Virus genome (UHGV): UHGV-0022223
Length of the DNA stretch: 36,010 nucleotides
Reading direction: 5' to 3' (one strand)
Source of the DNA: a virus
The number at the start of each line of letters is the position of its first letter. The stretch's first letter is position 1. A program made the translations under genes and the position numbers. The notes beneath the pieces were generated by a model, which was not told where the DNA came from, did no database searches, and was given only the letters and a program-made list of their open reading frames with translations. Positions 3,177-32,006 of the stretch are shown here, one piece after another.

Positions 3177-3470
3177 ATGAAATCAGTAACTAAGCCATGT
3201 CCTATTTGTGGTGAAGGCGCTTTGTCTTTTAACCAGACAAATCAGTTGGTTAACATCAAAGTAAATCCACCAACTATTCGTGAAGTTCCATCAGTGGTTT
3301 ATGTTTGCGATACACACGGATGGTTTTCACTTTCAGAACAGATAAACAGCCTCGTTACATCAACAGACGACCCTGTGGCTAAACAAAAATTGGCAGTTAT
3401 CGTCAAAGAGCGATATGTGCCGGAACATGATCAGCCGTTAGCTCTGAAACCTATTGAGTCGCTCGCATAA
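3177..3470 (+). CDS. Hypothetical zinc-ribbon protein (CPICG...C..H), AT-rich, opposite orientation inside leftward early operon
   Basis: 97-aa ORF with RBS AAGGA; visibly lower GC than flanks; converges on and overlaps the 3451..3720 gene by 20 bp. Confidence 0.5.
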   Translation: MKSVTKPCPICGEGALSFNQTNQLVNIKVNPPTIREVPSVVYVCDTHGWFSLSEQINSLVTSTDDPVAKQKLAVIVKERYVPEHDQPLALKPIESLA

Positions 3471-3720
3471 GGTCTTTTCGGCTCTCACTGCGATATCCCA
3501 GGCGGTACATTTTCACGTAGGCTTTGCCACGAGGAATGCCGCCTGTTTTGTTGAATCTCTGCTGGGCGCGACGATGGTGTTTTGCTTCAGGGCTGTTTGA
3601 TCCTTTCCCGCCATCCGACCGCGAACTCGGGAGTTGCATTGGCTTTTGGCGTGAATCGAATTTACGTGCCCAGCACGCTCCAAAGCCGATCATTCCTGTT
3701 TTCTTCGTATTACCTTTCAT
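3451..3720 (-). CDS. Small basic protein, first gene downstream of PL-like promoter (function unknown; possible N-like regulator)
   Basis: Track ORF 3451..3765 starts at TTG; internal ATG at 3720 has RBS AAGGAG 7 nt upstream. K/R-rich 89-aa product. Confidence 0.5.
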   Translation of the reverse strand: MKGNTKKTGMIGFGACWARKFDSRQKPMQLPSSRSDGGKGSNSPEAKHHRRAQQRFNKTGGIPRGKAYVKMYRLGYRSESRKDLMRATQ

Positions 3721-3869
3721 CTCAATCTCCTTTGCCCTTGTCGCCAGGCTGGCGGAACGTTTCAAACCTACTGCGCGTTAATCTCACCACCTCATTCCGG
3801 TCTTCGTATGCCCCGGACGGCTACTTCGTGGGCTCCATGCCTGGGTGGTTCGTGGTGCGTCTTGGTGAT

Positions 3870-3945
3870 TGCATATTAAGCCTGAGACTTAAATCATGTC
3901 AAGCTCCAGGCGAAATGTGATTGTAAGTTTCAGGCTTAATCGTGA
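3870..3945 (-). promoter_or_regulatory. OL/PL-like region: leftward promoter with repressor operator sites
   Basis: Minus strand reads TTGACA (plus 3897-3902), 18-bp spacer, TAATAT; operator-like 17-mers TTAAGCCTGAGACTTAA (3876-3892) and TAAGTTTCAGGCTTAAT (3924-3940) match those beside the repressor gene. Confidence 0.55.
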
Positions 3946-3964
3946 TGTTCACCGAATTGCAGGC

Positions 3965-3998
3965 AAAAAAAATCCCGACGCTAAGGTCGAGATCGGGG
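3965..3998 (-). terminator. Rho-independent terminator (minus strand) upstream of PL
   Basis: Stem TCCCGA (3973-3978) / TCGGGG (3993-3998), followed on the minus strand by an 8-nt U tract (plus A8 at 3965-3972). Confidence 0.5.
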
Positions 3999-4043
3999 AC
4001 TTCGTGGCTGGGTGTTGGCGGCTGAGATGGTGGGTGAGGGTGT

Positions 4044-4073
4044 AAAAAACCCGGCGCTGTGGCCGGGTTTTTT
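4044..4073. terminator. Bidirectional rho-independent terminator ending the moron operon
   Basis: A6, then CCCGGC-gctgtg-GCCGGG, then T6; sits just after the stop of the 34-aa ORF on the minus strand. Confidence 0.7.
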
Positions 4074-4075
4074 CA

Positions 4076-4180
4076 TTACTGCTGGTTAAATCCTTTCGGC
4101 GAGTGCTGCTGTTCTTTATTACCAAATTTTTGATTTACAATGATTTTATAAGCGTTATTGAGAGCTTGCTTTATAGACAT
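4076..4180 (-). CDS. Small 34-aa basic peptide (MSIKQALNNAYKIIVNQKFGNKEQQHSPKGFNQQ), coupled to upstream 434-aa gene
   Basis: ATG at 4180 with RBS AAGGAG 6 nt upstream, 17 nt after the 434-aa gene stop; stop followed directly by the terminator. Below the track length cutoff. Confidence 0.45.
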   Translation of the reverse strand: MSIKQALNNAYKIIVNQKFGNKEQQHSPKGFNQQ

Positions 4181-4197
4181 TAATATCTCCTTATGTG

Positions 4198-5502
4198 TTA
4201 TTGACGATTAAAGTAGTTAGAGTTTAGCTCTTTAGGGAAGTAGTGTTTACGATTTACCCAAACAAATCCATCAACTTTTGATATCACAGCGACATCAACA
4301 GGCCCACCGACAGTTTCATAATCATGTGATACTTTTCTTTTGAATGCAGTGATGTTCACTAATGATTCGGCCATATACGCAAGATCTGCCTTCCCAAGTG
4401 ATTGCAACATCGATATCATTTTATTTGTATGGTTATTAACAATATAGCTTTCAAGTTTAGTATCGTGATCTTGTAAAAGTACGTTTTTGAGTTCCTCAAT
4501 TTCACTGGAGAAGTGATTGGCTAGTACTCCATTGTTCATTGCAGGGAAAATATTGCTAGAAACATAATGATTAAGCCGATCAAAAACTTCCTCTGTAAGA
4601 GTTCTGTTAAAATTAATGATGTTAGGGTTGCACCCATCAATGAAAGTTACTACTTCATCTTCTTGAGCAAATGGTATAACAAACCCCATATTGGTTACCT
4701 CATTATGGGATTTCTCATCAATATTATGGATCATCAATTTGTTTTTAAAAATGCCGTAGATATGAAGAGTGCAAATGGAAGGGTAATATTCTTCCTCTCC
4801 ATAACCTGTTATAACAATCCCTGAATATGTACGACTAGCATGGACTTTGAAAATTAAACAAGTGGAATATAATATGACTTTTTCCATAAGCTCTTGCTGT
4901 ATATTTTCACAGTTATCAAGAACAATAATTGATGAAATGTATGGCGATATTAAATCTTGTATATATGCTAAAGCATCATTAAACTCTTCTGTATCAAACC
5001 CTTCGAAAAAGAGATTATTCCTTAAGATTCCTATCTCTAAATCAAAGGCTTGCTTAACTATGTTTTGAAAAATAACATTGTCGAGTTCAACGGCGGGGTT
5101 CATTGTTAAATAGTTTACTACATTATTATCATTAATGTATCTCATCAAACCTTTGAGGTTATCAACAACAAGGTTTATAACGCAAGCCTCTCTCATTTCA
5201 TTTGTTATAAGGTCTGAGTTACCATTGATGAATTTTACAAAGTCATTAACATATTCTTTAATGGTAGGGAAACTAGTTTTCCCCAATTGTTTTCTATAGG
5301 ATTTAATTATAAGTTCCCACGGTGCGCCACCCAGTGTCGCATTATTATAAATCATGATCCCCACGGGATGGTGTTTAGATAGTTCGAATAGTTTTTCCGC
5401 ACTATTATTTATTTTTACTAATCTATTATGCTCTGTGGTGACTGCAGAGTCAGCAGCAAGGGCGATTCCAGTATTATTTATTACAACAATCTCAGCTGTC
5501 AT
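4198..5502 (-). CDS. 434-aa protein with proteasome-beta/HslV-like Ntn-hydrolase sequence blocks and a large internal insertion; AT-rich moron
   Basis: Long ORF in strongly AT-rich DNA. Starts MTAEIVVINNTGIALAADSAVT...KLF (Thr after Met, Asp about 16 residues later, Lys before LF), has a TGYGEEE block, and ends GGPVDVAVISKVDGFV, which closely resembles the proteasome beta C-terminal strand recalled from memory. Confidence 0.8.
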   Translation of the reverse strand: MTAEIVVINNTGIALAADSAVTTEHNRLVKINNSAEKLFELSKHHPVGIMIYNNATLGGAPWELIIKSYRKQLGKTSFPTIKEYVNDFVKFINGNSDLITNEMREACVINLVVDNLKGLMRYINDNNVVNYLTMNPAVELDNVIFQNIVKQAFDLEIGILRNNLFFEGFDTEEFNDALAYIQDLISPYISSIIVLDNCENIQQELMEKVILYSTCLIFKVHASRTYSGIVITGYGEEEYYPSICTLHIYGIFKNKLMIHNIDEKSHNEVTNMGFVIPFAQEDEVVTFIDGCNPNIINFNRTLTEEVFDRLNHYVSSNIFPAMNNGVLANHFSSEIEELKNVLLQDHDTKLESYIVNNHTNKMISMLQSLGKADLAYMAESLVNITAFKRKVSHDYETVGGPVDVAVISKVDGFVWVNRKHYFPKELNSNYFNRQ

Positions 5503-5526
5503 TGCAAAACATCCCGTGTAGTAGTG

Positions 5527-5560
5527 ATAAATATTAATTAAATTGATAGTTTTTCAATCT
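5527..5560 (-). promoter_or_regulatory. Candidate promoter for the moron operon
   Basis: Minus strand reads TTGAAA (plus 5552-5557) followed 15-18 nt later by an AT-rich -10 candidate (TAATAT/TATTTA); weak RBS. Alternatively read through from the repressor gene. Confidence 0.25.
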
Positions 5561-5641
5561 AACATAAATGGCGGAATCACCCCCCAGTAAAGACATCATT
5601 GTCTCATGGGAACTAAAAATTCAGGACAAACCTAAAGCGAT

Positions 5642-6028
5642 TCAGTCCCCCTGCGAGCGAATCCGCCCCTTCATGTACTTCTCATACAGCTCATCCAGTT
5701 CCTTAAGACGTATCGAAAAGATGCGGAGCATGTTCTGTTGCTCTTCTTCTGGCAGCTGGCGGTAGAGCTCAAGCAGGCGCTGTTCGTCCGGCTTAAGTCC
5801 GTCCTTCTCGCCGACATCCTCACCGAGTAACCAAGGCACAGACACGCCAGCTGCGTCAGCGACAGCGAGAGCTGATTTCTTGCTGATCACGCCTTTTTTA
5901 AACCAGCCGTTCACAGACTGCGGGGTTACCCCAGCAACCCTGGCCATATCGGATTTGGTCATACCGCGCCCGTTCAGCTCTGAAAGGCGTTCGACAAGTA
6001 TCGGATTAAGTACGGTTTTCTCTTTCAT
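5642..6028 (-). CDS. Prophage repressor, HTH XRE family, DicA/RacR-like (no S24 peptidase domain)
   Basis: 128 aa; N-terminal HTH (MTKSDMARVAGVTPQSVNGWF) and a C-terminal LLELYRQLPEEEQ segment resembling DicA from memory; divergent from a Cro-like gene with operators between them. Confidence 0.75.
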   Translation of the reverse strand: MKEKTVLNPILVERLSELNGRGMTKSDMARVAGVTPQSVNGWFKKGVISKKSALAVADAAGVSVPWLLGEDVGEKDGLKPDEQRLLELYRQLPEEEQQNMLRIFSIRLKELDELYEKYMKGRIRSQGD

Positions 6029-8922: not shown

Positions 8923-9159
8923 ATGCACCATTACATGATCCCTATCAACGGAACTGTTCACCTGATCAAGACTGACTCTCTAATCCCTGAAGGGACTGAG
9001 TATAGCTTTGAAGGAGAAAGTCTAATCTGCGCTCATGCCACTTTTAAATCTGGGACGTATGGCTTCCTGATACCAAAGGGAAATCAGTTGAATAGAGAGC
9101 ATGCGTTCTGGCATGTAAGTGGAATTCACCCTAATCCCCTGGGAATGGATAAATCGTAA
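8923..9159 (+). CDS. Hypothetical 78-aa protein in AT-rich insert
   Basis: RBS GAGGAG before the ATG; perfect TATAAT at 8887-8892 upstream; lower GC than flanks. Confidence 0.5.
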   Translation: MHHYMIPINGTVHLIKTDSLIPEGTEYSFEGESLICAHATFKSGTYGFLIPKGNQLNREHAFWHVSGIHPNPLGMDKS

Positions 9160-9168
9160 TCCATAATA

Positions 9169-9205
9169 TGCATGCCATCGTCCTGAACATACGGTGGCAT
9201 GCATC
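9169..9205. repeat. Perfect 10-bp inverted repeat ATGCATGCCA / TGGCATGCAT with 17-nt spacer
   Basis: Arms at 9169-9178 and 9196-9205 are exact reverse complements; no U tract follows. Confidence 0.7.
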
Positions 9206-9270
9206 CGGCACTACAACAGAAACGTTAAAGTGCAAACAATACAATTCGAGCAATATTCAACCTGTCACAG

Positions 9271-9412
9271 ATGGCGAATACCACCGCCATTTCGTGCATT
9301 CTGTGGTTTCTATTACCCATTGCGTTAATGCTGTCCAATCATCAGCTCGCTGAGGCGCTGGTTAGGGCTAACCTACAGGAGCTTTGTCAGCAGAAACAAA
9401 TAGCAGCGTAAT
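9271..9412 (+). other. Small ORF fusing a hydrophobic N-terminus to a second diverged copy of the methyltransferase 3' end
   Basis: MANTTAISCILWFLLPIALMLSNHQ then LAEALVRANLQELCQQKQIAA; 9335-9412 is about 80 percent identical to 8745-8822. Confidence 0.25.
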
Positions 9413-9428
9413 AAAACATCGCTAATTC

Positions 9429-9457
9429 AACCCGCTACGGCGGGTTTTCTTTTTTTA
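9429..9457 (+). terminator. Rho-independent terminator
   Basis: AACCCGC-tacg-GCGGGTT followed by a T-rich tract. Confidence 0.7.
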
Positions 9458-9495
9458 CTACTGACAGAAAATTAACAATTTGTGCTCTTAAAGCG

Positions 9496-9538
9496 TTGAT
9501 CATTTCCGCGCATAGGTATACTGTATAAAAACACAGTA
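9496..9538 (+). promoter_or_regulatory. Promoter with overlapping LexA (SOS) box for the dinI-like gene
   Basis: TTGATC, about 15-bp spacer, TATACT; TACTGTATAAAAACACAGTA at 9519-9538 fits the LexA consensus CTGT-N8-ACAG. Confidence 0.75.
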
Positions 9539-9556
9539 AATGCAATGGGGGCCATT

Positions 9557-9790
9557 ATGAAAGTTGAATTAACCATTGATCGCATGAAAGAACTTCCTAA
9601 AGGCGCAGTACCAGCACTGGAGAAAGAACTGCTTAAGCGCCTGAATGATCACTATGACAATTGCAGGCTCACAATCCGCCGTGCCGGGGCCGATGGGTTA
9701 AGTGTTTTTGGTGGTGACAAGGACGATAAAAAGAAAATTGAATCAATCCTCCAGGATACCTGGGAAAGCGCTGACGACTGGTTTTATTAG
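9557..9790 (+). CDS. dinI: DinI-family DNA-damage-inducible protein
   Basis: MKVELTIDR... with C-terminal ILQDTWESADDWFY resembling E. coli DinI from memory; second ATG of the track ORF; LexA box upstream. Confidence 0.8.
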   Translation: MKVELTIDRMKELPKGAVPALEKELLKRLNDHYDNCRLTIRRAGADGLSVFGGDKDDKKKIESILQDTWESADDWFY

Positions 9791-9907
9791 AATTGCGCTT
9801 AAGGCTGGCGCGCATTTTTCAGAATACCGCAATTTGCGTAACCCTCTGATGCTGCTGCCGACAATCTTTAATCGCGTCTGTTAGTCGCTCGAAGGGAGAA
9901 CATAAAT

Positions 9908-10156
9908 GTGAGTGATTCAGCTTTGCAAACGTCAGAAGACAACTGGTATGACATTGTAAGAAGGTCTGACGGCTGCGTGGTGTTTAGCTTTCCTTCATCG
10001 GGCAGGCATCTAATTTATCGCGTCAATGGCATGGTTTCTATGCGGCCTTTGCTGGATGATGAAGAGGTCTTTACTCCTAATGGTTTTATGCAGTTTATTC
10101 ACCGTCTCGGCTACCGGGTAACCCCACCTTCTGATAATATGAAATCAACGGTCTGA
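9908..10156 (+). CDS. Hypothetical protein (GTG start)
   Basis: 82-aa ORF with RBS AAGGGAGA before the GTG. Confidence 0.45.
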   Translation: MSDSALQTSEDNWYDIVRRSDGCVVFSFPSSGRHLIYRVNGMVSMRPLLDDEEVFTPNGFMQFIHRLGYRVTPPSDNMKSTV

Positions 10157-11784: not shown

Positions 11785-12567
11785 ATGAACCTTGAAAACA
11801 CAGTGAAATACCACTTCGCTAAATCCACACTGATTAGCGATTCTCCGCGCGCTACCGCCTCCGATTCACTGACCGGTACCGACATAATGGCTGCCATGGG
11901 CATGACGCAGGAACGCGCCGCAATGGGTTACAGCGCCTTCCTCGGCAAGATGGGCATAAGCAATAACGACCGGGATCGGGCGATCGGTCTGCTGGCTGAG
12001 TACGCGATGACAAAATGCGACAAGGTTGCCGCACTGCGTAAGCTCGGTGCCGCGGTTAAACCTCAGGTGATTCACCAGTTGGCCACCTTCGCTTTTGAGG
12101 ACTATTCCCGCAGCGCTGCCAGCGTGAAGCAGTGCGATTGTTGTGACGGTCAGGGCTTCATTGAGGCTGACGTGTTTACCAATAAATTCCGTAAGCCAGA
12201 AGGGAAAATGACCGTGTCCGGGATGGTGAAGGTCAAAGAATCCATCAAAGTGCTATGCAAAAAGTGTAATGGCTCTGGTGTGGTTAGTGCTTCTTGCAGT
12301 GATTGCCATGGGCGCGGCAAGGCAGTGAACCAGGCTCTTACTGAGAAACAGGGCGTTCCTGTTCTGGCTGACTGTAAGCGCTGCGGAGGGCGTGGGTATG
12401 AACGACTTCCGTCGACTGAAGCCTATGCTGCTGTATGCCAGATTACTGACGCCATTAGCCTGGACACCTGGAAAAAGTCTGTTAAGCCATTCTACGACCT
12501 GCTGATCACGAAATTTGATATCGAAGAGTCCTGGGCCGAAAAACAGCTTAAGCAGATAACGCGGTAA
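11785..12567 (+). CDS. Q: Late-gene antiterminator Q family
   Basis: 260 aa with paired CxxC zinc-finger motifs; last regulatory gene before the late promoter and terminator region and the lysis genes; RBS GGAGAAG. Confidence 0.65.
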   Translation: MNLENTVKYHFAKSTLISDSPRATASDSLTGTDIMAAMGMTQERAAMGYSAFLGKMGISNNDRDRAIGLLAEYAMTKCDKVAALRKLGAAVKPQVIHQLATFAFEDYSRSAASVKQCDCCDGQGFIEADVFTNKFRKPEGKMTVSGMVKVKESIKVLCKKCNGSGVVSASCSDCHGRGKAVNQALTEKQGVPVLADCKRCGGRGYERLPSTEAYAAVCQITDAISLDTWKKSVKPFYDLLITKFDIEESWAEKQLKQITR

Positions 12568-12666
12568 CGCCTATAGCGATAGCCTATGATTTTGTCTTGG
12601 GCTATTTACTTTTCCCGAATCTGTGTTAATTTTGTCCCAACGATGGGTTAATGCCTTCGTTTCAAG

Positions 12667-12696
12667 CCCTGCGGATAACACCGTGGGGTTTTTTGC
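12667..12696 (+). terminator. tR'-like terminator of the short late leader transcript
   Basis: CCCUGCGG-auaaca-CCGUGGGG (two G-U pairs) followed by U6, about 100 bp downstream of Q. Confidence 0.5.
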
Positions 12697-12778
12697 GTTT
12701 CTGGATACTGATATGCCAAGAAGAGTGGTAATCAGGTAGTATTCATTCAATAAGTAGGATGCAGAAGGTAATAGCATT

Positions 12779-13348
12779 ATGGAAAATATTACTGGCGAAT
12801 ACTTTTTGGATGCTGACGACGAGCTTGTCGATTACCTTGAAAAGCAGGGTGAAGAATGCATCAAAGAGGCTTACCACTCGAACACTGTCAATATTGAGAA
12901 TGGCTATAAGCTGCTCAATATTCAGATCGTCGGTATTGGCTCTTCGTTTTTACTCCTTACTCAAAAAACGAACTGGGACTACCTTGCTGTTGGTATCGCT
13001 GCATTTACTTTCTTGTGGACATGGTGCGCAATATATCTTGTCCACTCAGGGTTGTCGGTTAATGTCAGGGCGTTGATTTCTGCACCGCCAGATAGTCTTT
13101 ACACTAAGAGCTTTAAAAGTATCGATAGCGACGATCACCAGTGGTTTCGAGGAAATGGCTACACCGGGACTGAGAAGACCCTTCCCATTATCCGGCGTTA
13201 CCGCTTGGCTGATCTGTGTAAGACGTCAAAAGAGATGCTGGTATTAAACAAAAGAATTAGAACGCATCTTGATAGAGCAAGGATCATGACAATCCTTGCT
13301 CCGGTAGTGTCTATAATGGCATCAGCTATTGCTTTTTGTTATCTCTGA
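12779..13348 (+). CDS. Hypothetical membrane protein (AT-rich moron between Q and the lysis cassette)
   Basis: 189 aa with two central hydrophobic segments and a C-terminal hydrophobic anchor; lower GC than neighbours. Confidence 0.6.
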   Translation: MENITGEYFLDADDELVDYLEKQGEECIKEAYHSNTVNIENGYKLLNIQIVGIGSSFLLLTQKTNWDYLAVGIAAFTFLWTWCAIYLVHSGLSVNVRALISAPPDSLYTKSFKSIDSDDHQWFRGNGYTGTEKTLPIIRRYRLADLCKTSKEMLVLNKRIRTHLDRARIMTILAPVVSIMASAIAFCYL

Positions 13349-13481
13349 CAAAGTCAGCAGAATCGCCGACAAATACACGTCTCGTGGCAAATTCTTTTGC
13401 TGGCTGGGGTTGAGGCGCGGGTTTTGGAGCTTCAGTCGATTGTGATTTATTTTCGTTTTGTGGCTGCTTTTGTTCAGACAT
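13326..13481 (-). CDS. Small Pro/Gln-rich ORF, convergent with and overlapping the membrane-protein gene
   Basis: ATG at 13481 with RBS GAAGAGG; 51 aa (MSEQKQPQNENKSQSTEAPKPAPQPQPAKEF...); below the track cutoff. Confidence 0.2.
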   Translation of the reverse strand: MSEQKQPQNENKSQSTEAPKPAPQPQPAKEFATRRVFVGDSADFVRDNKKQ

Positions 13482-13716
13482 AAAAACCTCTTCGTTTGAG
13501 TTGTTACTTTTGGCGATTTAACGATATCAAACGCGAGGTTATACCGCCAGACACATGATCTGGCCCTTCACTTTGCCCTGGCGTTTGCCGGGGCTTTTTC
13601 ATTTCCGGCTCACGGTAATCATCCGCTACGTGCTTTGTTGATAAATCCAACCCGTGAAGCCTGAGCCTATTTCCCCTCATACCTGAGAGGACTCACAGCA
13701 ATTAAGAGGGGGCTAA

Positions 13717-14103
13717 ATGTCCGATCCAATTTCCGGTACTGGGCTGGCTGGTGGTGCCCTGACGGGTGCCAGTGTTTATGGACTGCTGACCGGAACTGAT
13801 TACGGCGTTGTATTTGGCGCATTTGCAGGGGCTGTATTCTACATAGCAACAGCAGCAGATCTGAGTGCATCGCGCCGACTGGCATATTTTATCGTGTCAT
13901 ATATTGCCGGGATTCTTTGCTCTGGGTTGGTTGGCTCCAAGCTGGCGAACTTGACCGGATACAGTGATAAACCTCTGGATGCTATTGGTGCCGTAATCGT
14001 CTCTGCTTTAGCCGTTAAAATCCTGACGTTCCTGAATAATCAGGATATCGGCTCGCTGGTGGCGCTCATAACGCGCCGGGGAGGTTCAGGTGGAGCTAAA
14101 TGA
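13717..14103 (+). CDS. Holin-like membrane protein
   Basis: 128 aa, Gly-rich with several hydrophobic helices; RBS AAGAGGGGG; first gene of the lysis cassette. Confidence 0.55.
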   Translation: MSDPISGTGLAGGALTGASVYGLLTGTDYGVVFGAFAGAVFYIATAADLSASRRLAYFIVSYIAGILCSGLVGSKLANLTGYSDKPLDAIGAVIVSALAVKILTFLNNQDIGSLVALITRRGGSGGAK

Positions 14104-30059: not shown

Positions 30060-31124
30060 ATGTCTCTTAACTGGATGCGCCATTTTGAGCTGCAACTGTT
30101 GGACCAGAACGGGCAGGGCGTTTCCCTGTCTGACTTTAAGGTCACGTTCCAGATCGAGTGGGCAGACACACGCTGGCCGCGCGTGGCGAACGTGAAAATT
30201 TACAACCTTTCGACCGATACCACGAACAAGATACTGGGGCAGGAGTTTGCCAAAATTCGCATCATTGCCGGGTATGACGGTATAGCGCCGGATGTTGATG
30301 CGAGCCAGGTCGGCGTCGCCCGAGAGATTTCACCAGACCAGATAGGGCAGGTGAACGGTCAGAACTACGGCCTGATTTTTGACGGTGATATTCGCTTTAC
30401 CGTAACCGGGAAGGACAACATTACCGATTCCTGGGTGTTGATTCAGGCTATTGGAGATCATGAAGCGTTCCTCTACGCGACTACCATCACTACGCTTGCC
30501 GCTGGCTATACCGTTGCGGATCTGCACCGGGCGACGATGCAGGATTTCAACGTGTTCGGCGTGACACAGGGCATTACCGGCGATTTTCCTGATACCGTGT
30601 TTCCTCGTGGCCGCGCGATTTACTCATCCACTCGTAACGTGATGGATAATATTGCAGCGCAGTGCAAAGCGACATGGCAGCTGGTGGATGGTCAGGTCCA
30701 GATGGTGCCGGAGGATAAATATATTCACGAAGCCATTGTGTTGAATGCCAATACTGGCCTGATTGGTATGCCGCAACAGACGATGGGCGGCGGCGTAAAC
30801 GTGCGGTGCCTGATAAACCCAAACATCCGCATTAATGGTCTTATCCAGCTCGATCAGGCTTCGGTGTACCGCGCGTCGCTCGGTAATAGCGAAATCGCAC
30901 AGTCGCCCGGGCGTATCACCGAAACTGAAGAGAATGGCAACCGTGTGCTGACCGGTACGACGTCACAGGCTGCCAGCATTGCGACGGATGGCGTTTATAT
31001 CGTCAAAGCTATCGACTATACTGGCGACACCAGAGGTCAGGCGTGGTACATGGATTTGATGTGTTTTGCGCGTGGCAGTCGTGATTTAGTTAATGCTGGT
31101 GCTATGCAAAAAACAAACTACTGA
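30060..31124 (+). CDS. Baseplate hub-like protein (Mu gp44-like position)
   Basis: 354-aa ORF upstream of the spike gene. Confidence 0.45.
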   Translation: MSLNWMRHFELQLLDQNGQGVSLSDFKVTFQIEWADTRWPRVANVKIYNLSTDTTNKILGQEFAKIRIIAGYDGIAPDVDASQVGVAREISPDQIGQVNGQNYGLIFDGDIRFTVTGKDNITDSWVLIQAIGDHEAFLYATTITTLAAGYTVADLHRATMQDFNVFGVTQGITGDFPDTVFPRGRAIYSSTRNVMDNIAAQCKATWQLVDGQVQMVPEDKYIHEAIVLNANTGLIGMPQQTMGGGVNVRCLINPNIRINGLIQLDQASVYRASLGNSEIAQSPGRITETEENGNRVLTGTTSQAASIATDGVYIVKAIDYTGDTRGQAWYMDLMCFARGSRDLVNAGAMQKTNY

Positions 31125-31134
31125 GGTACGGGAC

Positions 31135-31470
31135 GTGAAACTCGTAATTTTTATCATTGCAGCATTATTTTCTTTCCAAGCTATTGCTGATTCTCAGTGT
31201 GGTGATTTCAAAATCCATTGGGCTGATGATGGTTTCGCTCGCGTAAACGGAGCTAAACCTGAATCGCAAAAAGTGACATTTCTTAAAAATGACGGTGATT
31301 ATAACAACGTCAAAATTGAATGGCGCTTAGCGACCAATCAACCAGGGCGATGGGTAGGAATGGAGTTTATTGGCCGTAATGGTAAAGCAATCCTGAATGC
31401 TCAGTGGCTGCAAGCCAGCATGGATTCGCCGCGTCAGTACGCAACATACGACTGCCGAAAAGTAAAATAG
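31135..31470 (+). CDS. Small secreted protein (signal peptide, two Cys), AT-rich moron
   Basis: GTG at 31135 after GAGG; KLVIFIIAALFSFQAIA then DSQ looks like a cleavable signal peptide; AT-rich; a terminator follows. Confidence 0.5.
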   Translation: MKLVIFIIAALFSFQAIADSQCGDFKIHWADDGFARVNGAKPESQKVTFLKNDGDYNNVKIEWRLATNQPGRWVGMEFIGRNGKAILNAQWLQASMDSPRQYATYDCRKVK

Positions 31471-31471
31471 C

Positions 31472-31490
31472 CCGCCAGATAGGCGGGCAT
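31472..31490. terminator. Hairpin between convergent moron genes
   Basis: CCCGCC-agata-GGCGGGC sits between the stop codons of the two moron genes; no clear U tract. Confidence 0.4.
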
Positions 31491-31493
31491 GCG

Positions 31494-31784
31494 TCAAAAA
31501 TATTGAGCTTTAATTATAATAAACACAATAATTACGAACAGGATGTTTCTAATTATTTTTTGCTTATGAGTAAGTTGTTTTTTTTCTGTCGATTTCCCGG
31601 GAGAGTAAAGGTTAGTGGTATGCGACAGCCCCGTGCCGGGAAGGCCATTTGTCATCTTTACGCCTTTTTTTCCGATGTTAATGGTGGAACCTTTACCACC
31701 AATTGAAGTGCTTACTCCGCTTTTACTAATGTTGATCGCGAGTCCGGGCGCAATCCGGATTCTTTTACGAAATCTAAATCCCAT
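31494..31784 (-). CDS. Membrane-anchored protein, N-terminus reminiscent of DUF4236-type proteins (MGFRFRKRIRIAPG...), AT-rich moron
   Basis: 96-aa ORF with strong RBS AGGAG; Gly/Lys-rich region then C-terminal hydrophobic anchor FVIIVFIII; AT-rich. Confidence 0.55.
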   Translation of the reverse strand: MGFRFRKRIRIAPGLAINISKSGVSTSIGGKGSTINIGKKGVKMTNGLPGTGLSHTTNLYSPGKSTEKKQLTHKQKIIRNILFVIIVFIIIKAQYF

Positions 31785-31972
31785 TTGTTACTCCTGTAGT
31801 CAATAATGCGATGGTGCAGGTCCACTCTATGGCGGCTTCATGGCTGAAATTGATTTTCAATGCTTACTTGTTGCAAATATATCCTAATACACCTTGTGAA
31901 TGTGTGCCATTGCAGCGGAAAAGCCTTACTTCACACTGATGTAGCTTAGTTACTAAGAGATAATTGATACCA

Positions 31973-31996
31973 AACCAGCTTCGGCTGGTTTTTTTA
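31973..31996 (+). terminator. Rho-independent terminator upstream of the spike gene
   Basis: AACCAGC-ttcg-GCTGGTT followed by T7. Confidence 0.6.
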
Positions 31997-32006
31997 TGGG
32001 GGTTTT

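Follow-up and report, generated by a model that had tools for sequence, protein, structure and literature searches.

A proteasome-fold threonine hydrolase and a co-diverging micro-protein form a mobile two-gene unit in temperate phages and satellites

Results

A proteasome-like gene and a small downstream ORF

The stretch of DNA analysed here, a virus genome of 36,010 nucleotides (UHGV-0022223; hereafter the window), carries on its minus strand, at positions 4198–5502, a gene that open reading frame (ORF) and family analysis identified as encoding a 434-aa proteasome-beta-like threonine hydrolase of the N-terminal nucleophile (Ntn) type, hereafter the protease. Together with a co-diverging micro-protein encoded just downstream, the protease forms a two-gene unit that appears to be new. 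The gene is a 434-codon ATG ORF (start at 5502, TAA stop at 4200–4198). A first-pass annotation, made from the letters of the window alone, had given a 434-aa translation without stating its strand, and our reading matches it exactly, from the MTAEIVVINNTGIALAADSAVTTEHNRLVKINNSAEKLF start through the middle block TYSGIVITGYGEEEYYP to the C-terminal ETVGGPVDVAVISKVDGFV. A gene on the plus strand at 4198–5502 was rejected, as that strand contains many stops throughout and offers no open reading.

The start codon required additional attention. In a near-identical Escherichia coli prophage (NZ_CP151050.1), the RefSeq/PGAP version of the protein is 466 aa long (WP_225104017.1) and starts 32 codons further upstream. 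In the window, the corresponding upstream extension (5503–5641) is closed by an in-frame TGA, the cause being a difference in the length of an A-run. Considering this TGA and that every homolog starts with MTAE, the 434-aa reading is correct and the 466-aa start was rejected. The over-extended PGAP start also masks the N-terminal threonine, which is the defining residue of the family.

The partner ORF (4076–4180, minus strand) begins 17 nt past the protease stop, has no annotation in RefSeq and encodes a basic, hydrophilic product of 34 codons, MSIKQALNNAYKIIVNQKFGNKEQQHSPKGFNQQ, for which equivalents were found across loci. It is preceded by a Shine-Dalgarno (SD) sequence, AAGGAG (4187–4192, minus strand), 6 nt upstream of its ATG. 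An intrinsic terminator (4044–4073, minus strand) follows and closes the two-gene unit; it was read directly from the sequence as an A-tract, a CCCGGC stem, a 6-nt loop, a GCCGGG stem and T6 (stem at 4067–4050, T-run at 4049–4044), and was missed by the consensus scan.

Directly upstream of the protease, on the same strand, lies a gene for a 128-aa DicA/cI-type helix-turn-helix (HTH) repressor (5642–6028, minus strand; NCBIfam DicA subfamily, E 1.7e-8; phrog_8, E 6e-18), which places the module in a rexAB-like slot. The 139-nt gap between the repressor and protease genes contains a candidate sigma-70 promoter (TTGAAA-16-AATATT; 5530–5557, minus strand), a consensus match only (9/12). Our scan found no terminator-like site between the repressor gene and the module, and given this, read-through from the repressor promoter into the module is possible. 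The protease gene has a G+C content of ~35%, versus ~53% in its flanks and 52–58% in most of the window. The interval 5557–4044 (minus strand) is best explained as prophage cargo in the form of a two-gene cassette that is self-contained and moves horizontally.

The protease has a proteasome-beta-type core with two helical insertions

The predicted structure of the protease is a four-layer alpha-beta-beta-alpha sandwich, with strands S1–S10 and flanking helices H1–H4, which is the proteasome-like Ntn hydrolase fold. The first-pass annotation had proposed profile searches and structure prediction as a check, and the model showed this fold, with a core-only hhalign comparison (below) pointing the same way. 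We consider the proteasome-beta-type Ntn fold secure, whereas the function is a prediction.

The core is encoded in three parts. The first (residues 1–96; 5215–5502, minus strand) comprises S1–S4 followed by H1 and H2 and holds the Thr2 nucleophile, Asp18, Lys30 and Lys37, as placed by the model, by the invariant residues and by the hhalign register to the Thermoplasma acidophilum beta subunit. The second (residues 222–292; 4627–4839, minus strand), delimited by the model, the family alignment and hhalign, comprises S5–S8 (SGIVITGYGEEEYYP), a PFAQEDEV motif and H3. The third (residues 369–434; 4201–4398, minus strand), delimited by the model and the family alignment, comprises H4 (LAYMAESLVN), the ETVGGPVDVAVISKVDGFVWV hairpin and H5, and is the sole segment that matches 20S beta subunits when full-length profiles are used. 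Between the first two parts, the model places insertion 1 (residues ~97–221; 4840–5214, minus strand), which consists of four helices (100–133, 141–160, 170–191 and 202–217; predicted local distance difference test (pLDDT) >90), is poorly conserved, has a net charge of −12 and sits at the 'pore-loop' site that follows H1/H2. Insertion 2 (residues ~293–368; 4399–4626, minus strand) consists of two long helices (292–320 and 324–367 in the model) between H3 and H4. Thus, what had been described in the first pass as a single insertion of ~230 residues is instead two, of ~125 and 76 aa. As both insertions, which are acidic, lie at sites that line the pore or form the ring-ring contact in ring-forming proteasomes, the enzyme probably needs neither a stacked-ring chamber nor an AAA+ unfoldase.

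Only one segment of the model, residues 21–33 (window ~5401–5439, minus strand), is of low confidence (pLDDT <50). This is the S2–S3 loop, which adjoins the active site and differs in length by 3–5 residues among clades, with the bordering T22 and K30 conserved; it could be a specificity or gating loop.

Across 97 homologs (37% mean identity), the residues M1, T2, N9, A16, D18, S19, A20, K30, K37, G228, G233, G235, V398, D403 and V404 are invariant, as are E379 and the VGGPxDVA strand, a pattern of conservation far beyond chance. The Thr/Asp/Lys layout proposed in the first pass is therefore borne out: Thr2, Asp18, Lys30 and Lys37 (numbered with Met included) are each invariant in 97/97 aligned homologs, and hhalign aligns D18 and K37 with Glu17 and Lys33 of the T. 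acidophilum beta subunit. The start codon is followed directly by Thr in at least 245 of the 263 family members that were fetched, and the exceptions resemble mis-called starts. Methionine aminopeptidase can act on a Met that is followed by Thr, and its specificity suggests that Thr1 would be exposed in this way.

The family is large, and its similarity to 20S beta subunits emerges once the insertions are excised

Within PHROGs, the protease falls over its full length in phrog_5990, a family of unknown function. A word-indexed search returned more than 6121 matches, all named 'hypothetical', and an exhaustive profile search recovered 6067 clusters at 50% identity, nearly all of which are ~430 aa long and match from residue 1. 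Sequence searches of the PDB gave nothing significant, and no solved structure of the family was present in the PDB copy used; the family profile reached archaeal beta subunits at E~1. A fold search against BFVD returned no match.

With full-length profiles, hhalign aligned the family with the T. acidophilum beta subunit at 70% probability over the C-terminal strand only. When we excised the insertion columns using the structure model, the remaining core profile aligned to the same subunit (sequence verified against 3C91) from end to end, at 91% probability and E 1e-6 over 178 columns. In this alignment (Met excluded), Thr1 falls on Thr1, Asp17 on Glu17 and Lys36 on Lys33 (KLF on KLF), and GGPIDVAVISKGDGFV falls on GGMIDVAVITRKDGYV. 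The weakness of the full-length sequence evidence is due to the insertions, which break alignments. By contrast with the 20S beta subunit, E. coli HslV (verified sequence) showed no similarity (hhalign, 0.4% probability), so that of the earlier 'proteasome-beta/HslV-like' description the first half stands and the second does not.

A fast-evolving, basic micro-protein accompanies the protease across phyla

Relatives of the protease are carried by 242 IMG/VR viral contigs, and the family occurs in phages of Proteobacteria, Bacteroidota and Firmicutes. We surveyed the region downstream of the protease in 80 of the 242 contigs, which were fetched, plus phage records. Before any filtering, every surveyed locus had a small ORF of 20–81 codons, the start of which lay −20 to +43 nt from the protease stop. 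With an SD-like motif and 30–70 aa as added conditions, a partner ORF (30–67 codons) was retained at 61/64 non-redundant loci, as compared to 9.8% of random positions and 14.9% of positions after other long ORFs in the same loci. The gap between the two genes ranges from −20 to +29 nt, and 8 of the 61 pairs overlap. SD-like motifs precede the small ORFs across loci; the SD of the protease is weak by contrast. The partner ORF was found in 4/4 Streptococcus satellites tested, the arrangement also occurs in a Porphyromonas element, and gene finders do call the ORF in Vibrio and Celerinatantimonas.

Families of peptides can be distinguished that track the protease subtype; within them, short motifs around aromatic residues are conserved (NAYK.LA..KF; LKQ.Y...QPK..DFF...NFF..L; ELREWQKKFNP...F.W) and the linkers are variable. 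Peptide identity climbs with protease identity, from 18% for proteases that are 35–45% identical to 44% at 60–80% and 73% at 80–95% (Spearman 0.43). The two products are oppositely charged: peptides are positive in 60/61 pairs (mean +4.4) and proteases are negative in 61/61 (mean −17.8), the negative charge of the window protease lying mainly in insertion 1 (−12). No transmembrane segment (maximum 15-aa hydropathy 0.75), signal sequence or recognisable toxin motif was seen in the peptides, which are hydrophilic. AlphaFold (AF2) predicted a confident helix at residues 3–18 of the window peptide alone, ending at Phe19-Gly20 and followed by disorder. An aromatic residue is found at position 18/19 in 5/6 multi-member peptide families (rotation null 16/5000, under a post hoc restriction to these families), and we treat this 'Phe19 ruler' as a lead only. 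We found no natural protease-peptide fusions; the C-terminal tails of the proteases do not exceed 31 aa and show no relationship to the peptides.

The cassette occupies variable accessory sites in prophages, phages and satellites

In the window and in 13 complete E. coli genomes, the cassette lies in a Rac-like lambdoid prophage beside kch, in the order int-recT-recE-ydaE-hyp-[peptide-protease]-HTH repressor, with the divergent ydaS-ydaT-O-P beyond it. In sibling prophages, the same flanks enclose an unrelated two-gene cargo, and phage relatives match the flanks only, which indicates that the slot (~3622–5641) is a variable cargo hotspot. The sibling cargo encodes proteins of 84 and 173 aa, or of 101 and 211 aa plus an extra HTH gene; these are coiled-coil-like and belong to no Pfam or PADLOC family. 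As uncharacterised coiled-coil proteins, they were uninformative when considered as a functional clue.

Elsewhere, the surroundings change. In ~20 lambdoid prophages the cassette has the antiterminator gene Q on one side and the holin-endolysin genes on the other and runs antisense to the late operon, and a Providencia phage carries it at the same Q-holin site in the sense orientation. In phages of Stenotrophomonas and Klebsiella it separates the lysis cassette from the virion genes and lies on the opposite strand. It is also found within the head-neck module of a Porphyromonas phage and after the primase gene in Serratia int-AlpA-primase satellites, and seven Streptococcus phage satellites carry it at their accessory end (in the one examined, RelBE is nearby). 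Outside prophages, the Vibrio vulnificus module lies by a PLD/DrmC-like gene and a 107-aa ORF of unknown function, beside a Zot-encoding filamentous prophage, and in Celerinatantimonas a reverse transcriptase and the PADLOC candidate PDC-S43 (E 3e-51) adjoin the module. In 13/13 loci tested, the module is richer in AT than its flanks, and no AAA+/ATPase gene was present in any neighbourhood examined. The tight, co-directional pairing of the two genes, borne by mobile elements or lying among defence genes, fits the genomic arrangement of toxin-antitoxin (TA) and abortive-infection modules.

In the Streptococcus satellites Javan103, 468, 160 and 421, the module is always preceded by genes for a ~121-aa hypothetical protein and a ~98-aa 'putative transcription regulator', the latter ending ~20 nt before the protease start. 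Firmicutes versions of the cassette may have a regulator of their own in the ~98-aa protein.

Several other features of the window were recorded. A second terminator-like hairpin (3971–3994, minus strand) lies ~50 nt past the cassette terminator, in a ~420-nt stretch without an annotated gene; the ORFs near it, 3582–3920 (plus strand) and 3451–3765 (minus strand), had no family matches. Three further AT-rich patches are possible morons: 9001–10000, with a DinI homolog (9545–9790; phrog_189); 12001–14000, with a 189-aa ORF of unknown function (12779–13348; phrog_11870) just upstream of the holin gene (13717–14103); and 31001–32000, with a 125-aa ORF of unknown function (31093–31470; phrog_3443) among tail genes.

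Discussion

Proteasome-fold enzymes are the textbook self-compartmentalising proteases. The proteins described here retain the fold and the catalytic residues, and they are encoded in a two-gene unit whose products co-diverge and carry opposite charges, and which is borne by mobile elements at accessory sites. Sites of this kind typically hold exclusion, toxin or defence genes. The reading that we favour, and to which we give about even chances, is that the protease and micro-protein constitute a mobile conflict or defence module of temperate phages and satellites. Our confidence in any particular polarity of the module is much lower.

Under this reading, methionine aminopeptidase would remove the initiator Met and expose Thr1, as in HslV, and the product of the first gene would be a catalytically competent, ring-less and specific protease, or possibly a connectase-like transpeptidase. 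The basic micro-protein could bind the acidic insertion domain and present its conserved aromatic segment to the active site, either inhibiting it as a pseudo-substrate, in the manner of an antitoxin, or serving as a labile substrate or sensor, and proteolysis would thereby stay switched off during lysogeny. An infecting phage, or loss of the element, might upset this balance and free the protease onto host or phage targets, with superinfection exclusion, abortive infection or addiction as the outcome, any of which would favour the carrier element. More speculative, and in our view rather doubtful, is the broader proposal that the family represents a very widespread, unrecognised class of conflict system, in which a ring-less proteasome-family threonine protease is gated by a rapidly co-evolving micro-protein, the helix and conserved aromatic of which would dock on the acidic insertion domain as a pseudo-substrate, and in which the pair excludes competing phages or enforces maintenance of the temperate phages and satellites of Proteobacteria, Bacteroidota and Firmicutes that carry it. 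On this proposal, the insertion-bearing proteasome homologs would gain their first assigned biological role, and the proteasome fold its first defence system.

A number of points weigh against a defence role. The protease had no match in Pfam-A or NCBIfam (the Proteasome model, PF00227, was absent even at E<10), and 0 families in PADLOC-DB v2.0.0 matched it at E<=1. Our literature search found no functional study of the family and no publication tying it to a phenotype, and two defence-discovery papers from 2026 do not mention proteasome-like proteins. Adjacency to defence genes was observed at two loci only, and morons may also have quite different roles in a prophage, lysogenic conversion and regulation among them. 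Protease activity and a physical interaction of the two products are both predictions. For the peptides, the aromatic-position signal is not significant over all 10 families including singletons (p~0.11), the aromatic at residue 18/19 is absent from the Firmicutes peptides, and there is no consistent hydrophobic moment or amphipathic signature, which led us to drop the claim of an amphipathic helix. Last, the canonical GSG/Ser129 motif is not conserved, its position being taken by hydrophobic residues followed by PFAQ. Of the other supporting residues, the 166–169 region aligns only with a 4-residue gap ([ED][TS]VGG), and position 52, compared with the oxyanion-hole Gly47, is Gly in most members and Asn in the window protein; Gly47 and Ser129/Asp166/Ser169 were thus not recovered as a set. 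As these residues vary among divergent homologs, their loss weakens the description 'canonical' rather than 'proteasome-like'.

Four other explanations were considered. The first keeps the pair in conflict but reverses its polarity: the micro-protein would be a toxic effector that is continuously degraded by the protease, and infection would block or saturate the protease, so that the accumulating peptide arrests the cell. The strong SD on the small ORF versus the weak one on the protease, the tight operon linkage with co-divergence, a disordered peptide tail that appears degradable and a conserved aromatic that is possibly a P1 cleavage site all fit such a guard. However, the peptides have no transmembrane or hydrophobic segment and no toxin motif, and their very fast divergence is more typical of antitoxins and adaptors than of effectors, and we consider this polarity unlikely.

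The second is a role in the phage itself, with the protease processing the micro-protein or a regulator, for example as an ImmA-like anti-repressor or in peptide maturation. The window suggests this at first sight, with the gene directly downstream of a repressor; as connectase shows, high sequence specificity is within reach of a monomeric proteasome homolog, and the short conserved motifs of the peptides resemble recognition sites. Yet the repressor adjacency is not kept at the Q-holin, tail/head, satellite and non-prophage sites, which led us to reject an ImmA-like anti-repressor as a general explanation. Moreover, the cassette frequently runs antisense to phage operons, its AT-richness is that of foreign cargo, the peptides lack export signal sequences, and sibling prophages with the same flanks lack the module, which is therefore dispensable for the phage cycle. 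A phage-cycle role thus seems improbable.

Third, the proteasome fold might serve as an inert binding platform, as in alpha subunits, with the Thr/Asp/Lys conservation being structural. Such a scaffold would account for the unconserved Ser129/GSG, the absent match to the Pfam Proteasome model and the low-confidence loop at residues 21–33. Inactive homologs such as alpha subunits lose their catalytic residues and carry N-terminal extensions. It is exactly those residues that are retained here, with the post-start Thr, Asp18 and Lys37 invariant in a family that comprises, at 50% identity, more than 6000 clusters, making an inert scaffold highly improbable. Finally, that the downstream frame is a non-functional chance ORF and the protease a stand-alone gene can be set aside as extremely improbable: the frame is unannotated in RefSeq and most records, its sequences differ greatly among clades and four peptide 'families' are singletons, but it recurs at 61/64 loci versus 10–15% in controls, keeps amino-acid motifs within families while the linkers vary, shows an SD, fixed spacing and overlaps, has a terminator directly after it in the window and is present in three phyla.

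The micro-protein partner and the consistent carriage at accessory sites supply a genomic clue for what is probably the largest of the new classes catalogued in 2021 (below), and they make an orphan family of more than 6000 clusters open to experiment as a two-component system. The micro-protein had been missed for being too small to annotate. If the defence or addiction role is true, the pair would represent a new enzymatic principle in bacterial immunity and a source of a compact, potentially sequence-specific threonine protease or ligase tool. If the role is neither, the locus still reveals a mis-annotated start and a systematically missed small gene.

Comparison with known systems

Compared to the 20S beta subunit (T. 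acidophilum PsmB, 1PMA/3C91), the protease described here is twice the size, with ~200 inserted helical residues, and it has no propeptide, no alpha partner and no Ser129 GSG, sharing only 10–19% identity. A 4x7 barrel is unlikely for it, as the insertions occupy the ring and pore contact sites. HslV is a compact housekeeping protein of ~175 aa that forms double hexameric rings, unlike this 434-aa mobile-element cargo, which has no profile similarity to HslV and no adjacent hslU or other ATPase gene. Connectase, a monomeric proteasome homolog and peptide ligase of archaea (6ZW0), has its insertion, a helical lid, between S3 and S4, lacks H1/H2 and is confined to methanogens, none of which applies to the protease here; its substrate MtrA is also not encoded beside it, and ligase activity is not implied for our family.

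In its genetic organisation, the cassette resembles lambda rexAB and toxin-first type II TA systems, being an AT-rich two-gene unit with its own terminator that occupies a post-repressor or Q-lysis moron site and is dispensable for the phage. Tight spacing and a small, fast-evolving second product behind a strong SD are further points of resemblance. There is no sequence or structural relationship to RexA/RexB or to known toxin or antitoxin families, and no PADLOC match.

The closest parallels are among the 22 new families of proteasome homologs without ATPase partners that were catalogued from sequences and models, with no function or gene context given for the new classes (Fuchs, Alva and Lupas, Bioinformatics 2021; PMC8665760). 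The lack of a partner ATPase, which the first-pass annotation had called unusual, therefore has precedents. In the catalogue, a 'Proteasome homolog with Multiple Insertions' (PMI) has insertions after H1/H2 in PMI-3 and PMI-4 and between H3 and H4 in PMI-2 to PMI-6, and insertions of this type were argued to prevent ring or double-ring assembly (PMC8665760). PMI-4 comprises 501 nr90 sequences from many bacterial phyla, phages included (PMC8665760, Table 1), and the class representatives are HDY66466.1 for PMI-4 and OGZ26396.1 for PMI-3 (PMC8665760). Our family is probably PMI-4, an assignment made by published topology, abundance and distribution rather than by sequence clustering. Like PMI-4, it combines a proteasome-beta core bearing Thr1/Asp17/Lys33 with one insertion after H1/H2 and another between H3 and H4, and it lacks both a propeptide and an AAA+ partner; it is similarly abundant across many bacterial phyla and phages (here 6067 clusters, with occurrence in 242 viral contigs and in phages of Proteobacteria, Bacteroidota and Firmicutes). 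The fold class has therefore been known since 2021, and what appears to be new is the two-gene unit and its ecology as a moron, in satellites and in defence neighbourhoods: the PMI catalogue describes neither the micro-protein partner, nor the opposite charges of the two products, nor their occurrence at moron sites and in satellites.

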